A DNA stretch of 64,000 bases. Origin: an uncultured delta proteobacterium. Lineage in GTDB: Bacteria; Desulfobacterota; BSN033; UBA1163. The stretch covers positions 64,001-128,000 of the forward strand of contig CAVPSJ010000013.1 in assembly GCA_963708295.1 (NCBI GenBank), written 5' to 3'. Position numbers and translations under genes: made by a program. Position 1 is the stretch's first letter. Each line of letters opens with the position of its first letter. Positions 31,632 through 62,983 of the stretch are shown in pieces. The notes under the pieces were generated by a model. It ran no database searches. It had not been told where the DNA came from and was given only the letters and a program-made list of their open reading frames with translations.

Positions 31632-31736
31632 TGAGTTCGGAGTCGTGGGTAGCTCAAAGCTTAATGTTGAAGGCCGGATCTTGCCTTGAGCCTTGAACTT
31701 TCAGCCTTCAGCAGAAATGACCCCGAACGCTGAACT
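31632..31736. repeat. Inverted heptamer-array hairpin (nested) between hslU and argB
   Basis: Outer tgagttc-ggagtc / gaccccgaacgctgaact; inner gctcaaa-gcttaat-gttgaag / cttgagc-cttgaac-tttcagc-cttcagc. Confidence 0.7.
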
Positions 31737-32650: not shown

Positions 32651-32796
32651 TCGAAGCACGAAATCCCTGCCATCGCGCAGGCAGGCGAAATTCGAAACAA
32701 GCACGAATTTTTGAAATAAAAATTTCCAAAACGGAGAGTTTAAAGATTTGAACAGTTGAATTTGTTTCGGGATTCGATATTCGGATTTCGGATTTT
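32651..32796. repeat. Inverted heptamer-array hairpin between argB and argD with nested CCTGCC..GGCAGG palindrome
   Basis: cgaagca-cgaaatc-[cctgccatcgcgcaggcagg]-cgaaatt-cgaaaca / tgtttcg-ggattcg-atattcg-gatttcg. Confidence 0.8.
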
Positions 32797-32813: not shown

Positions 32814-34010
32814 ATGGATTCTCAAACCTTGATGATGTTATCTGAACAGGTTGTGGCCAATACCTATGCCCGCTATCCCGTTGTTCTTGTCAGAGGGAAG
32901 GGAACTCGGGTCTGGGATTTGGAAGGAGAAGAATACCTTGATTTTTTGTCAGGCCTGGCGGTCTGCAATTTAGGGCACTGCCATCCAAGAGTGGTCAAGA
33001 CCATTCAAGAACAAGCAGAGAAGTTGATTCATGTTTCAAACTTCTATTATATCGAACCGCAGATCCAACTCGCTTCGCTTCTATGTAAGCATTCCTTTGC
33101 GGATAAAGTCTTCTTCTGCAATAGCGGGGCCGAAGCCAACGAGGGAGCGATCAAATTGGCCCGGAAATATGCAAAAGAGAAGGTCGGGAAAGACCGGTAT
33201 GAAATCATCACCATGGAGCGTTCCTTTCACGGAAGAACTCTGGCGACCCTGACGGCAACGGGCCAAGAGAAGTTCCACAAAGGTTATGACCCTCTGATGC
33301 CCGGGTTTAGGTATGTTCCCTTCAACGACATCGGGGCAGTGAAACATGCCATCGGACCCGGAACGTGCGCTGTCATGGTGGAACCCATCCAGGGAGAGGG
33401 AGGGGTGAATTGCCCATCCGAAGGTTACCTGAAAGCCCTTCGGGAGATCTGTGACGAAAAGAAGCTCCTCCTCATCTTTGATGAAGTCCAGGTGGGAATG
33501 GGCCGGACCGGGAAGCTTTTCGCTTATGAGCACGAAAGGGTTGAACCGGATGTCCTTACGCTTGCAAAATCATTGGCAGGAGGAGTTCCTATCGGAGCTT
33601 TGTTGATCAAAAAGGGAGTTGCAGATAGTTTCAAGCCTGGGGATCATGCCTCCACCTTTGGGGGAAACCCCCTGGCCAGCGCAGCAGGTGTGGCCGCCTT
33701 GACGGCGATATTGGAAGAGGGGATGTTGGAAAATTGCCAAAAGATGGGAGACTACTTCTTCGCTGAGCTTGACAAGACGAAGAATAAGTTTCCTTTCATA
33801 AAAGAGGTTCGGGGGAAAGGTTTGATCTTGGGCATGGAACTGAAGATAGAGGGGGGGGCTATCGTTAAGGAGATGTTGAAGAAAAGAATTCTCATCAACT
33901 GCACAATGGGAAATGTTCTCCGGTTCCTCCCCCCTCTGATTGTCACCCAGGAAGAAGTCGACCGGGTCGTCACAGCATTGGAAGAAGTCTTAGAAGGGTT
34001 GAAGTTATGA
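32814..34010 (+). CDS. argD: Acetylornithine aminotransferase
   Basis: CNSGAEANE, FHGRT, EPIQGEGG, FDEVQ.G.GRTG, AKSLAGG, STFGGNP. Confidence 0.95.
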   Translation: MDSQTLMMLSEQVVANTYARYPVVLVRGKGTRVWDLEGEEYLDFLSGLAVCNLGHCHPRVVKTIQEQAEKLIHVSNFYYIEPQIQLASLLCKHSFADKVFFCNSGAEANEGAIKLARKYAKEKVGKDRYEIITMERSFHGRTLATLTATGQEKFHKGYDPLMPGFRYVPFNDIGAVKHAIGPGTCAVMVEPIQGEGGVNCPSEGYLKALREICDEKKLLLIFDEVQVGMGRTGKLFAYEHERVEPDVLTLAKSLAGGVPIGALLIKKGVADSFKPGDHASTFGGNPLASAAGVAALTAILEEGMLENCQKMGDYFFAELDKTKNKFPFIKEVRGKGLILGMELKIEGGAIVKEMLKKRILINCTMGNVLRFLPPLIVTQEEVDRVVTALEEVLEGLKL

Positions 34011-34072
34011 GTTCGGAGTTGAGAGTTCGGAGAAGAGAATTGACTCCGAACCCCGAGCTAATGACTCCGAAC
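34008..34072. repeat. Inverted heptamer-array hairpin between argD and argG
   Basis: gagttcg-gagttga-gagttcg-gag / ctccgaa-ccccgag-ctaatga-ctccgaa-ct; overlaps the argD stop codon. Confidence 0.8.
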
Positions 34073-35426: not shown

Positions 35427-38024
35427 ATGAAGGAACGTTATCAACCCAAAGAGATTGAAGAAAAGTGGCAAAAGATCTGGGAGAGCCAGAATCTCTTCAA
35501 AGTGACGGAAGATCCGAAAAAAGAAAAGTACTACCTACTTGAGATGTTTCCCTATCCCTCTGGCAAAATCCACATGGGCCATGTTCGTAATTATTCCATC
35601 GGCGATGTGGTCGCCCGGTATAAGAAGATGAAGGGTTTTAATGTCCTTCACCCGATGGGATGGGATGCCTTTGGCATGCCCGCTGAAAACGCGGCCATTG
35701 AACGCGGCGTTCATCCTGCAAAATGGACGTATGAAAATATCGATACCATGCGGAAACAGTTGAAGCGGATGGGCTTCAGCTATGATTGGGAACGGGAATT
35801 TGCCACTTGCGATGTTTCCTACTACAAGTGGGAACAACTCTTTTTCCTAAAGATGTTCGAAAAAGGTTTGGCTTACAAGAGGAGGTCCTTTGTCAATTGG
35901 TGCGAGATCTGCCAGACCGTTTTAGCCAATGAGCAGGTGATGAGCGACGGGACCTGCTGGCGCGGCCATGCCGATGATCCGGGTGTCACACAGAAAGAAT
36001 TGGATCAATGGTTCTTCAAAATCACAGGATACGCAGAAGAACTTCTGGCGGGGTGCGATCAACTGAGCGGATGGCCCGAACGGGTTCTGACCATGCAGCG
36101 CAACTGGATTGGAAAGTCGATCGGCGCTGAGATTCATTTTCCTTTGATGAATTCGAAAGAATTCATCAAGATTTTCACCACGCGGCAGGATACTGTTTTT
36201 GGCGCAACCTTCATGAGCCTGGCACCCGAACATCCCCTCGCGCTGAGCCTGTCAAAGGGGACTCCACAGGAGCAGGCCGTGGGAGAATTCGTCGAGCGGA
36301 TGCGACGGCAGGATAAAATAAAGAGAACGGCTGAGACGACGGAGAAAGAGGGTGTTTTTACGGGGGCTTATTGCCTGAATCCTATGACCAAAGCCAGAAT
36401 GCCCATCTTCGTTGCCAATTTTGTCTTGATGGAATATGGGACAGGGGCGGTGATGGCGGTGCCAACCCACGACCAGAGGGACTTTGAGTTTGCAAAAAAA
36501 TTTGGACTGTCCTTGATCGTTGTGGTTCAACCGGAGGATCGGAAATTAGATGCGGATAAGATGACGGAAGCCTATGAAGGAGAGGGTTCGCTGGTCAACT
36601 CCGGCCAATTCAATGGCGTGTACAGTGTCAAAGCAAGGGAGATGATCGCCCAGTATCTTGACGAAAAGGGGCTGGGCGGGAAAAGAATCACTTACCGGTT
36701 GAGGGATTGGGGGATATCGAGACAGCGATATTGGGGAGCACCCATTCCCATTATTTACTGCAACCGATGCGGAACCGTGCCCGTTCCTGAAAAAGACCTT
36801 CCGGTCGTCCTCCCTTTCAATGTGGAGATCACGGGGTTGGGCAAGTCGCCTCTTTCCGGGTTAAAAGAGTTTGTGGAGGCCCGATGTCCTCAATGTGGTG
36901 AACCCGGGAAAAGAGAGACAGACACCATGGACACCTTCGTCGAATCCTCATGGTATTTTGATCGGTTTGCATGCCCCGACTACGACAAAGGTCCTTTGGA
37001 CAAGAAGCGGGTGGATTACTGGATGCCTGTGGATCAATACATCGGGGGGATTGAGCATGCGATCCTTCATCTCCTCTATTCCCGATTTTTTACTCGAGTT
37101 TTAAGGGAGATGGGATGGGTCGGCGTGGATGAACCCTTCACAAACCTTCTGACCCAAGGGATGGTTTGCAAGGAGGTCTACGAATGCCCGAAGGACGGCT
37201 ACCTCTATCCGGAAGAGGTGGAAGAGCCGGGCGAGACGATTCGCTGCCGGAAGTGCGGCAGTCCGGTTTCTATCGGAAGGATCGAGAAGATGTCCAAGTC
37301 GAAGAAGAACGTGGTGGACCCCGAATACTTGATCGAGAAATACGGCGCGGATACGGCCAGAATGTTTTGCCTCTTCGCCTCCCCGCCGGAGAAGGATCTG
37401 GATTGGAGCGACCAAGGGGTGGAGGGATCCGCCCGTTTCCTCAATCGGGTGTGGAGGCTCTTCGACGAGCAACATCTTCGCCTTCAAAAGGTAAGACCCT
37501 TTCCTTTCGGAGCAGCCCTTGAAGGAGAGCATAAGTCTTTGCGACAAAGGATCCACAAGACGATCAAAAAGGTGACCGAAGATATAGAGCGATTCCATTT
37601 CAACACCGCCATCAGTGCCGTCATGGAATTGGTGAACGAGGTCTATGTCTCAGAGGTGAAAGACCGGACGGACGAGATTTCGGAGAGGGTGATACGCGAG
37701 TCGCTTGAGGCAGTGGTCGTTTTACTGTCTCCCTTTGTTCCTCACTTTGCAGAAGAACTCTGGGAGGCTTTAGGGAACCGGGAATCGATCATCAAAACCC
37801 GATGGCCCGAATACGACCCGGAAGGGGTCTTGGAAGAGGAAATATTGATCGTCATTCAGGTCAACGGGAAATTGAGGGATCGGATGACCATCCCTGTGTC
37901 GTACGGAGAGGAGGAAGTAAAAGCCTGGGCATTGAAGAGTGAGAGAATTCGGAAATTGGTTGAAGGCAAGGAGATCAAACGGGTGATCCTCGTACCCAAG
38001 AAACTCGTCAATATCGTGTGTTGA
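35427..38024 (+). CDS. leuS: Leucine--tRNA ligase
   Basis: [13 protein letters not shown] (HIGH-type), [29 protein letters not shown]. Confidence 0.98.
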
Positions 38025-38036
38025 TCGGAAAACAAA

Positions 38037-38315
38037 ATGCGGAATGTGGAATTCGGAATTCGGAATTTAAATTCGCAATCATCCAGCACTGATAGATTGA
38101 AAAGAAATGTCCCTTCAATGTCACTCCTGCGAAAGCGGGAGTCCAGAAGTTCAAGGGACGAGGTTCTCCACATCAAGTGCGGAGTGTACCTGGCGAAGTT
38201 TATCCCGTTGAAGAAGGGCGTAGAAATGACATCCCGGAGTCCGAGGGGGGATTTCCAGTGGCCAGCGAATCTCATTGTAAAAAGACCCCGTATTCCGCGC
38301 TCCGCATTCCGAAAT
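38037..38315. repeat. Inverted heptamer-array element with nested REP-like palindrome
   Basis: atgcgga-atgtgga-attcgga-attcgga / accccgt-attccgc-gctccgc-attccga; interior tgtcactcctgcgaaagcgggagtccag...gaaatgaca. Confidence 0.8.
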
Positions 38316-38819
38316 TACGCTAACGTACTATTCATCCTATGCATGCTGCTCCTCACAGCCTGTGGCTACCAGATGGTGGGGAAGGAGACACATGTCCCCC
38401 CTGGGCTGAGTTCCGTCGCCATCCCCACCTTCAAGAATCGCACCTATGAACCTGGAATCGAGGTTCCTTTTACCCAGGCCTTTTTGAGGGAGTTCATCCT
38501 GGATCGAAGAGTCAACGTCGTGGACCGGGCGCAGGCGGACTCCCTGTTGGAAGGGGTCATAAAGGATTTTAGGTTCTACTCGGTTTCCTACGACCAATCT
38601 GGCTTCGTCTTGGAATATCAAACCATTGTCGTGCTCGACGTGACTCTGAAGGACCGGGAAGGGAAGGTTCTCTGGGAGCAGAGAAATTTTTCAGAAACCC
38701 AATGGTTTCGGGCTTCTTCGGGCGTTCTGACCAACGAAGCGAACAAGGCCGCTGCGGTTCAACGGATCGGAAAGCTTGTAGCAGGACGGCTTCGAAATCG
38801 TTTCTTTTATAATTTTTGA
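38037..38819 (+). CDS. lptE: LPS assembly lipoprotein LptE with a repeat-derived in-frame insertion at the N-terminus
   Basis: Lipobox LLTAC-GY, VAIPTFKNRTYEPGIE; position directly after leuS; residues 4-93 translate the repeat element. Confidence 0.85.
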   Translation: MRNVEFGIRNLNSQSSSTDRLKRNVPSMSLLRKRESRSSRDEVLHIKCGVYLAKFIPLKKGVEMTSRSPRGDFQWPANLIVKRPRIPRSAFRNYANVLFILCMLLLTACGYQMVGKETHVPPGLSSVAIPTFKNRTYEPGIEVPFTQAFLREFILDRRVNVVDRAQADSLLEGVIKDFRFYSVSYDQSGFVLEYQTIVVLDVTLKDREGKVLWEQRNFSETQWFRASSGVLTNEANKAAAVQRIGKLVAGRLRNRFFYNF

Positions 38820-39030
38820 CCGGAGAGTGCCCCCCGGTCAAAACAGTATACCATAGGGTAAGGGGCACCGTTAAGAGGGTATTTCCTCTCCATGAGACCC
38901 CGGCGTGCCTGCCCCGTGCTGATGGGGTGACCGTGGAGCTTCACAAAATAAAACGTTTTCCTCCGCCCCTGCCTGCAGCAGGCAGGCCCGCCTTCCCTTG
39001 GAGGGAAGCAAAGGAGGAGGAAGGGAAAAT
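38817..39030. repeat. Cluster of palindromic elements upstream of efp
   Basis: Copy 2 of tgaccgg..gtgcccc...aaggggcac (38817-38868); cctgcctgcagcaggcagg and cttccct/agggaag stems inside a C-rich/G-rich hairpin. Confidence 0.6.
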
Positions 39031-39035
39031 CATCT

Positions 39036-39599
39036 ATGTACTCCGCTTCAGATTTAAGAAAGGGATTGAAAGTCATCATTGATGGGGAACCCTACGTGGT
39101 GACGGTATTTGATTTTTCGAAGCCCGGAAAGGGTCAAGCCCTCTATCGGACGAAACTGAAGAATATGATCACGGGCCTGAGCATTGATCGAACGTATCGT
39201 GAGGGAGAAACCTTCGAACCCGCTTCTCTTGAAGAACGAGCCATGCAGTTTCTTTACAGGGAGGGCGAGCACTTTCACTTCATGGATAACGAAACCTACG
39301 AACAGATCATCGTCAGCGAGGAATCACTGGAGGATGCCAAGAATTTTCTTATTGACAATTTAAATGTGAAAGTCCTGTTATTCGGAGACAGAGCGATCGG
39401 CGTCGAGCTGCCGAACTTCGTCAATCTCAGGGTGGTGAAGACGGATCCCTGGATGAGAGGGGATACCTCGAAGGCGGATTTTAAGCCGGCTACGTTGGAA
39501 ACCGGCTATGAACTTCGCGTCCCTCCGTTTATCGAAGAAGGTGAACTGATCACTATTGATACCCGAACCGGTGAATTTTCGAAAAGAGTCAAGGAATAA
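39036..39599 (+). CDS. efp: Elongation factor P
   Basis: KPGKGQA loop, KPATLETG, VPPFIEEGE, IDTRTGE. Confidence 0.97.
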   Translation: MYSASDLRKGLKVIIDGEPYVVTVFDFSKPGKGQALYRTKLKNMITGLSIDRTYREGETFEPASLEERAMQFLYREGEHFHFMDNETYEQIIVSEESLEDAKNFLIDNLNVKVLLFGDRAIGVELPNFVNLRVVKTDPWMRGDTSKADFKPATLETGYELRVPPFIEEGELITIDTRTGEFSKRVKE

Positions 39600-62815: not shown

Positions 62816-62819
62816 TTAA

Positions 62820-62983
62820 TTCGAAGTACAAAATCCGAAATTCGAAACAATATCAAATGACAAAAATTCAAAACTCAGAACAGTTTTATCTGCTTAGTCG
62901 AATTTCTAAGAAGTCGTTTTAGAGCGTTTGGTCATTTGAAAATTAGTGTTTGTTTCGGATTTCGATATTCGGATTTCGGATTT
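62820..62983. repeat. Inverted heptamer-array hairpin upstream of the 2Fe-2S subunit gene
   Basis: cgaagta-caaaatc-cgaaatt-cgaaaca / tgtttcg-gatttcg-atattcg-gatttcg; arms nearly the same as 32651-32796. Confidence 0.82.

Follow-up and report, generated by a model that had tools for sequence, protein, structure and literature searches.

The window analysed here, a stretch of 64,000 nucleotides from an uncultured delta proteobacterium (assembly GCA_963708295.1, contig CAVPSJ010000013.1, positions 64,001 to 128,000), carries at the 5' end of its lptE gene a 270-nt hairpin-forming insert that lies in frame between the first three codons and the lipoprotein signal. Positions are those of the window, and "own genome" denotes the metagenome-assembled genome (MAG) that holds it (4.95 Mb on 20 contigs, 91% complete, 5.6% contamination). 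The lptE open reading frame (ORF) occupies 38037-38819, encodes 260 amino acids starting with the codons ATG CGG AAT, and follows the stop codon of leuS after a gap of 12 nt. The original prediction, made from the letters of this DNA, had described 90 stop-free codons (38046-38315) after MRN and then TAC GCT AAC; this was confirmed in the sequence and in the ORF, where the latter codons resume at 38316, directly after the insert. Deletion of 38046-38315 gives MRNYANVLFILCMLLLTAC, as had been written, and the in-frame ATGs of the ORF are, besides M1, the three listed at that time: M28, M64 (38226) and M103. The features of the locus are the following.

35427..38024, + strand: leuS (leucyl-tRNA synthetase), an ORF with Pfam editing, catalytic and anticodon-binding domains; stop codon TGA at 38022-38024
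38036..38067, + strand: 5' arm, heptamer array AATGCGG AATGTGG AATTCGG AATTCGG AATTT (Tandem Repeats Finder, TRF: period 7, 4.6 copies)
38037..38039, + strand: ATG, proposed lptE start, within the first AATGCGG heptamer and base-paired to the 3' arm
38046..38315, + strand: in-frame stop-free insert of 270 nt, codons 4-93 (ORF reading; nucleotide homologues in 17 loci)
38092..38173, + strand: inner module resembling repetitive extragenic palindromic (REP) elements (hairpin CTCCTGCGAAAGCGGGAG plus flanks), nested within the outer hairpin; helix 5 is conserved
38226..38228, + strand: internal in-frame ATG (M64), an alternative start with a 45-residue leader; AAGGG lies 7 nt upstream
38288..38316, + strand: 3' arm, GTATTCC GCGCTCC GCATTCC GAAATT, complementary to the 5' arm
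38316..38363, + strand: h-region and lipobox (YANVLFILCMLLLTA-C), with Cys109 encoded by TGT at 38361-38363 (hydropathy, conservation)
38361..38819, + strand: mature LptE coding part and stop codon (Pfam PF04390; ratio of nonsynonymous to synonymous divergence, dN/dS, 0.10-0.45)

LptE and its hairpin insert

LptE is required for lipopolysaccharide export and for the assembly of LptD in studied model organisms, and a position of lptE directly downstream of leuS is the typical proteobacterial arrangement. The end of leuS was located upstream of lptE in 130 of the 138 loci examined. The protein encoded in the window matches the LptE family (PF04390) over residues 125-255 with E = 1.4e-14 and 55.2 bits, against a cut-off of 23. 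In an alignment of 30 homologues the residues C109, G110 and Y111 are invariant, the lipobox reads LLTA-C109, and the h-region has a mean Kyte-Doolittle hydropathy of 1.84. It could be argued that the gene is decaying or non-functional here, or that the insert is an artefact of assembly, as the gene model is unusual and the MAG is neither complete nor free of contamination. This is hardly credible: the 336-nt junction recurs in an independent metagenome contig (L037), with 90% identity over the insert, and strong purifying selection acts on the mature part (window versus relatives, dN/dS 0.10-0.15). A search of the own genome with the mature LptE protein gave one match, and 52 columns are invariant across the 30 homologues.

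A lipoprotein signal for signal peptidase II (SPase II) has a short, positively charged n-region and a total length of usually about 15-35 residues. In the lptE ORF, 108 residues precede Cys109 when counted from ATG 38037, 45 from M64 and 6 from M103. The leader (108 or 45 residues) thus exceeds the usual length of a Sec/SPase II signal, and its charge is of the usual kind. The extension in the window contains 21 Lys and Arg against 7 Asp and Glu, and the in-frame net charge of the n-region is +5 to +15 in the related loci with this type of insert (type I, see below), so that the basic extension fits a cytoplasmic n-region.

At the level of the nucleic acid, the insert is enclosed by inverted arms of 29 nt (38035-38063 and 38288-38316, 76% complementary). 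The RNA of the insert folds with a minimum free energy of -100.7 kcal/mol, compared to -83.1 +/- 5.1 for shuffled sequences (z = -3.45), and none of 100 shuffles folds as well. In this fold the start codon at 38037 is paired in the base of the stem. The motif CG(G/A)AAT, which had been pointed out at both junctions, is indeed present (CGGAAT at 38040-38045, CGAAAT at 38310-38315); both copies are parts of the inverted heptamer arms, for which reason they were rejected as a target-site duplication, and none could be demonstrated. From the protein and DNA alignments of relatives, the layers of the nest are, from outside inward, the heptamer arms, a second stem, the REP-like module (translated as ...SLPRKRESRK..WIP..AGMT...) and a further piece of 45 nt. 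Called homologues of 201, 220, 224, 233-235, 239, 241, 254, 260, 261 and 267 residues correspond to differing subsets of these layers.

Between ATG and the Cys codon there are no stops in the lptE frame of the window, versus 6 and 3 in the other two forward frames, and only 0.44% of 5000 mononucleotide shuffles leave this interval open. The frame is thus open beyond chance.

The reading frame through the cassette in relatives

Related loci were collected with the mature part of LptE alone (152 amino acids), which introduces no ascertainment on the leader. The 138 loci consist of 80 from metagenomes, 28 from genomes and 30 from the genomes of relatives. A nucleotide search of this collection with the 270-nt insert found a match of at least 102 of the 270 nt in 17 loci, the window included, while an 18th locus contains a 33-nt module only. 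In the alignment of lptE 5' ends, proposed as a check in the original prediction, the lptE frame is open back to the leuS-proximal ATG in 16 of the 17 cassette loci and closed in L143. Among 16 aligned cassettes, 15 are without a stop in the lptE frame, and the two stops of L143 follow a frameshift. The other frames have 9 (+1) and 13 (+2) stop columns, each of them in some sequences only. Reading of the alignment places 10 of these 22 columns upstream of the M64 ATG; as the lptE frame is open there, that part is protected too.

The length changes follow the frame as well. Insertions and deletions (indels) within the type I ORFs measure 3, 45 and 81 nt. In L051 (874-1209) two heptamers (14 nt) have been lost, and the next ATG of the AATGCGG array restores the lptE frame. 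The AATGCGG arrays of L051 (874-1209) and L070 (119-423) offer ATG in all three frames, with four in a row in L070. L143 (897-1209) has a gap of 43 nt versus 45 nt in L040 and L070, plus a 6-nt duplication, and its upstream frame is closed; this locus is a single contig of a MAG record, and the 2-nt difference is either a real allele or an indel error.

A second family of cassettes (type II/Ib, starting either MNTEDRIQN... or, with a GC-rich insert, MRNAELGIRKL...) was found in 8 distinct loci. These cassettes contain no in-frame stops and 1-5 stops in each other frame, and the length differences within type II are 9 and 138 nt. The 138-nt insert that distinguishes L021 from L022 is flanked on both sides by GCAATCC, and its 30-70-nt modules are dispersed in the host genomes (20 matches in G010, 9 in G006). 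The same GC-rich modular insert follows a GCAATCC heptamer in L021:1350-1487 (G010) and in L024 (G006), in differing arm backgrounds.

Hairpins outside coding sequence served as controls. In close relatives with a proximal ATG and an 18-23-residue signal (MIIIKKFLPIICMVLITGC-like or MIIIKKFLP...-type), hairpins occupy the leuS-lptE interval 5' of the start codon and are open in only 13 of 28 loci (at least 78% identity, spacing above 90 nt). Of 41 other heptamer-armed hairpins in the own genome, 26 are closed in all six frames, and an open frame occurs in none of the 14 hairpins of at least 160 nt.

The peptide itself evolves near-neutrally. In 15 pairwise comparisons among six full-length loci, the extension has a dN/dS of 0.53-1.37 and mature LptE one of 0.10-0.45. 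Judged from these ratios, the sequence of the extension peptide is nearly free and its openness alone is maintained.

In relatives with short leaders the Cys codon follows the leuS stop after 49-89 nt, and lptE starts 8-16 nt past that stop, as in MRYALC... (13-16 nt) or MRVVFL.... The ancestor MRN/YANV, which had been reconstructed by removing the insert, is plausible in the light of these MRYALC... forms. A precise empty site for the window cassette was not found among the relatives, however; the close ones bear other 5' cassettes. In L009, L014 and L081, which are short forms free of the insert, lptE starts within another heptamer array, (CGCTATG)x3, read as MRYALC.... On the sequences compared, heptamer arrays at the lptE start recur across genera.

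At least three leader architectures can be distinguished among close relatives: a hairpin in the 5' untranslated region followed by an 18-23-residue signal, a probably translated hairpin of about 48 residues and a probably translated nested hairpin of 83-110 residues. In a FastTree phylogeny of 86 DNA rows of the mature part, the three types of junction cassette are intermixed, and type I requires 11 changes, at least 5 of which are forced by well-supported branches. L046 (type II) and L143 (type I) are sisters on the mature-lptE tree with 99% support. The intermixing points to a junction that recombines or turns over rapidly, or else to chimeric contigs.

Probable translation of the leader and alternative explanations

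An ATG is present at the site corresponding to 38037 in the type I and type II relatives, 11-18 nt past the leuS stop (or at -7). In 12 of 16 type I loci this upstream ATG is preceded by a Shine-Dalgarno-like GGGGA or GGAGA. Counting back from the Cys, the first in-frame ATG, GTG or TTG from which a signal could be made is reached after 82 residues in L056, 79-93 in L021, 81-92 in L024 and 47 in L015. With standard start codons, long leaders are therefore unavoidable in these four loci. Among the options first put forward for the window, toleration of a very long n-region is the one favoured by the comparative data, namely by the open frames and the unavoidable long leaders.

The most probable explanation is that selfish, nested hairpins resembling REP elements and MITEs (miniature inverted-repeat transposable elements) reside in the permissive, cleaved n-region of the LptE signal and that their translation begins at ATG 38037, in probable coupling with the termination of leuS. 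A nested stack of small repeats would occupy the 5' end of lptE downstream of its start codon, and as long as ATG 38037 is functional, only in-frame and stop-free versions of the cassette would survive. Ribosomes would initiate at ATG 38037, most likely by termination-reinitiation after leuS. This is suggested by the position of the ATG, which the insert-free short forms share, and by the interval between leuS and lptE, whose + strand gave no sigma-70-like promoter. On reaching the end of leuS, a ribosome would melt the lower part of the stem that sequesters ATG 38037, and the coupling would thereby also solve the burial of the start codon. The ribosome would then unwind the hairpin and translate the 90 extra codons into a basic N-terminal extension, in effect an n-region of great length. 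Sec export, lipidation and cleavage by LspA before Cys109 would then be directed by the h-region and lipobox, which are normal, and mature LptE would be unchanged.

Several observations weigh against this explanation. Ahead of ATG 38037 the window has a weak Shine-Dalgarno motif (CGGAAAAC), as has L037 at its upstream ATG, and the start codon of the window is buried in a hairpin of -100 kcal/mol. A leader of about 108 residues is far beyond the usual length of a lipoprotein signal. The gene caller of the protein collection placed the lptE start of the window at M103 (P0017, 158 amino acids). In L143 the upstream start is closed and the equivalent of M64 is the only one left; if this allele is real, the upstream start is dispensable. 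The evidence on the start site and on the protein is wholly comparative. The cassette loci are kin and include near-duplicates (L059, L061 and L063), so that the counts given above overstate independence, and metagenome contigs can be chimeric. The RNA-library contigs discussed below may stem from contaminating DNA, and a minor processed form is still possible.

An unlikely, though quite conceivable, alternative is that the internal ATG 38226 (M64) is the functional start. The leader would then have 45 residues with a repeat-derived basic n-region (..KRPRIPRSAFRN), as had already been considered for the window, and 38037-38225 would be untranslated or incidentally translated. A 45-residue leader is less extreme than one of 108, and AAGGG stands 7 nt before this ATG. 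All 10 aligned type I loci in which the inner module is retained have an equivalent ATG, as has L089; it is the sole usable one in L143, and a database protein (P0004, 197 amino acids, 93% identical) was called from it. However, the ATG is deleted (by the 81-nt gap) in 6 of the 17 cassette loci, L038, L056, L059, L061, L063 and L069, where the frame is still open to the upstream ATG. Furthermore, the lptE frame 5' of M64 is stop-free in 15 of 16 loci, against the 10 stop columns in the other frames. Because the REP-like consensus (GGAATGAC) contains the ATG, no selection is needed to account for it, and the support from L143 comes from one contig.

The original prediction had also raised removal of the insert at the RNA level or its bypass by the ribosome. 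Two contigs from RNA libraries of two studies run unbroken across the 3' junction at 38315/38316: record 13 of X18 (38138-38520, 25 differences) and record 15 of X19 (38293-38452, 2 differences). The search of sequencing runs returned only runs with a part of the searched stretch, at a best share of 0.46, and no contig that spans all of it. Four joints were found in the sequencing-run contigs, none of which is the removal joint 38045->38316. The two from DNA runs, 38061->38286 (X1, side 21) and 38071->38292 (X2, 18 other letters, side 24, depth 2), have sides too short to be assigned to the locus and were discounted as evidence of empty or shortened alleles; the X2 form also amounts to a length change of 202 nt, which is out of frame. 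The two from X18 (349 and 335 nt are skipped, and 129 and 160 other letters intervene) represent relatives with another junction cassette rather than excision. Rfam 15, searched over 37800-38600 with an E threshold of 1, contains no intron match; the only hit was snR76 (E = 0.6, under the gathering score), a chance match to a snoRNA.

Bypass of the T4 gene 60 type involves matched take-off and landing codons, a stop codon after the take-off codon and a gap of about 50 nt that is free of coding constraint. At lptE the AAT codons match, yet the codon following the putative take-off site is GTG rather than a stop, and the gap is 270 nt. Excision or bypass of the insert is unlikely. Very little credence is given to the version in which the insert is excised from the RNA or the ribosome hops in a gene-60-like manner from AAT (38043-38045) to AAT (38313-38315), yielding MRNYANV.... 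This version would account for the identical AAT codons, for CG(G/A)AAT at both junctions with a strong hairpin between them, and for a product with a textbook lipoprotein signal of 19 residues. The junction motifs, however, follow from arms that are inverted arrays of a near-palindromic heptamer. In addition, selection holds the frame through the insert open and confines indels to multiples of three; neither would be needed in a segment that is removed or skipped.

The hairpin is conserved along with the frame. Its outer helices are kept in 15 relatives, and helices 1-4 are paired to 87.5-95% in 6 of them. In the six full-length relatives 91.7% of the cells of the nested structure are paired; double changes occur in 9 cells, a number reached by 0 of 500 shuffles. 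Counted by pairs, double changes number 6 versus 3.3 expected (reached by 23 of 500 shuffles), a modest covariation drawn from six related sequences with a structure that comes from the same alignment. Synonymous divergence (dS) is 0.10-0.45 in the extension versus 0.08-0.76 in mature lptE and is lower in the extension in 14 of 15 pairs. These observations, together with the sequestered start codon and the intermixing of three alternative 5' cassettes on the mature-gene tree, would fit a cassette that is kept mainly for a nucleic-acid role, such as tuning of lptE/leuS expression, an influence on the processing or stability of mRNA, or that of a hot spot for recombination, with translation as a side requirement. 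As the main reason for its maintenance such a role is improbable: the low divergence may equally stem from a recent spread of the cassette through recombination, and the short-form relatives manage without it. It is compatible with a translated leader, to which it would add.

A speculative and rather unlikely extension of the translated-leader explanation is that cassettes recombine at the leuS-lptE junction in this Syntrophaceae-like lineage, with at least three leader architectures in circulation, and that the translated cassettes are functional devices. The start hidden in the stem would allow lptE to be made only upon termination of leuS, the ATG-bearing heptamers would keep a start in every frame despite slippage, and the leader would be the longest known for a bacterial lipoprotein.

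On the reading preferred here, in which the hairpins are translated from ATG 38037 as a tolerated n-region, an essential gene with 90 selfish-hairpin codons between its start and its export signal is a natural experiment on how much N-terminal extension the Sec/lipoprotein pathway tolerates. The cleaved n-region would be a safe harbour in which repeats enter coding DNA and the mature protein stays untouched. The locus also provides a clean comparative test in which hairpins are read by the ribosome rather than removed, and it brings heptamer-armed hairpins to light as a family in uncultured Syntrophaceae-like bacteria. For annotation, the gene call at M103 is a warning, as it leaves a signal of 6 residues.

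Repeat family and known systems

The lptE cassette belongs to a broad class of heptamer-armed hairpins. In the own genome, 549 of 2341 TRF arrays have a period of 7, and 48 pairs of neighbouring period-7 arrays are inverted and form hairpin arms with varied unit sequences. The whole cassette of 294 nt is single-copy in the own genome, although an in-frame palindromic mobile element should be multi-copy; a part of about 35 nt (38117-38152) has 4 further partial matches. At up to 5 mismatches the cassette modules are unique there, except for arm-like heptamer arrays at C4:246260-246337, C4:657193 and C13:43243. The inner piece 38092-38173 is a highly abundant repeat in X1, a wetland metagenome DNA run, where its summed contig depth is above 1000. 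The insert has the other properties of an in-frame palindromic element, i.e. terminal inverted repeats, a stable stem-loop and an open frame fused to the host ORF. As the whole is not multi-copy and no empty site was found, it is RPE/MITE-like (RPE, Rickettsia palindromic element) and is not assigned to any named family. In the literature no report was found of a repeat in an lptE signal peptide or of heptamer-armed hairpins, in searches that did not target the hairpin family as such, and this is not proof of absence.

The closest parallels are the RPEs described by Ogata et al. (2000), which lie in frame within protein-coding genes (PMC10969869, PMC2229807). In both cases a small palindromic hairpin repeat sits in a conserved housekeeping ORF, in frame, stop-free and translated; the repeat seems to be neutral or selfish, and its site permissive enough to tolerate it. 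The lptE element differs in its location in a cleaved signal-peptide n-region, where the mature protein is unaltered, and in its construction as a multi-layer nest with heptamer-array arms that is single-copy as a whole in its own genome. Its host is a free-living Syntrophaceae-like anaerobe, in whose close relatives several alternative cassettes, this one included, occupy the junction. Enterobacterial and Yersinia MITEs (ERIC/IRU and YPAL/RU-2; Delihas) are likewise described as fused in frame to ORFs, and the signal peptide of YPO1552 is partly MITE-derived (PMC2229807). There, too, MITE-derived sequence is part of an N-terminal export signal and the ORF runs through a stem-loop repeat. In YPO1552, however, the hydrophobic signal, that of a putative new protein, comes from the MITE. 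The lptE gene is old and conserved and has kept its ancestral h-region and lipobox, and the repeat does no more than extend its n-region.

The inner modules of the lptE insert are GC-rich imperfect palindromes of about 30-45 nt that are dispersed in related genomes and insert into one another, as in REP elements and bacterial interspersed mosaic elements (BIMEs). The latter are extragenic by definition and have RAYT (Y1 transposase) partners, in contrast to the intragenic and translated lptE repeat. Tandem heptanucleotide arrays that are over-represented in the genome are also shared with the short tandemly repeated heptamers (STRR) of heterocystous cyanobacteria. The arrays described here are inverted pairs that form hairpin arms, with unrelated unit sequences and in another phylum. 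Extensions of signal peptides in type V secretion system (T5SS) autotransporters and two-partner secretion (TPS) proteins comprise a conserved protein motif of roughly 25 residues. As in lptE, such extended signal peptides have additional N-terminal residues ahead of a cleavable Sec signal, which makes the leader unusually long (PMC3223724). The lptE extension, in contrast, has 90 residues, is repeat-derived and nearly unconstrained, and precedes an SPase II signal.

Heptamer arrays as general gene starts were rejected, as only 14 of the 549 period-7 arrays have an internal ATG that opens an ORF of at least 100 codons. As to a second in-frame hairpin within a real gene of the own genome, the sole ORF that spans a hairpin with long flanks (C4:792121-792921) is of low complexity and does not seem gene-like. 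At C4:66865-66895 (-) and C4:472807-472831 (-), the first ATG of a long ORF (347 and 378 codons, respectively) falls within an AATGCGG array; these ORFs begin MRNVE... and MRSAEFG..., resembling the MRNVEFG of lptE, and may be further genes with 5' ends built on heptamer arrays. The own genome also contains 9 matches to Y1_Tnp (PF01797; IS200/IS605 or RAYT-like), 7 of which are in open frames of 316-338 amino acids; on this family assignment, the Y1 transposases are candidate movers of the REP-like modules.

Elsewhere in the window, a typical non-coding member of the hairpin class lies at 62818-62983, where AATTCGA x4.3 faces TTTCGGA x4.4 and all six frames contain stops. Further period-7 arrays are present at 31683-31712 (GCCTTCA), 32780-32795 (TTCGGAT) and 34009-34038 (GAGTTCG). 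A GC-rich palindrome (..CCTGCCTGCAGCAGGCAGG..), seen by eye at 38950-39000, lies between lptE and efp (39036-39599).

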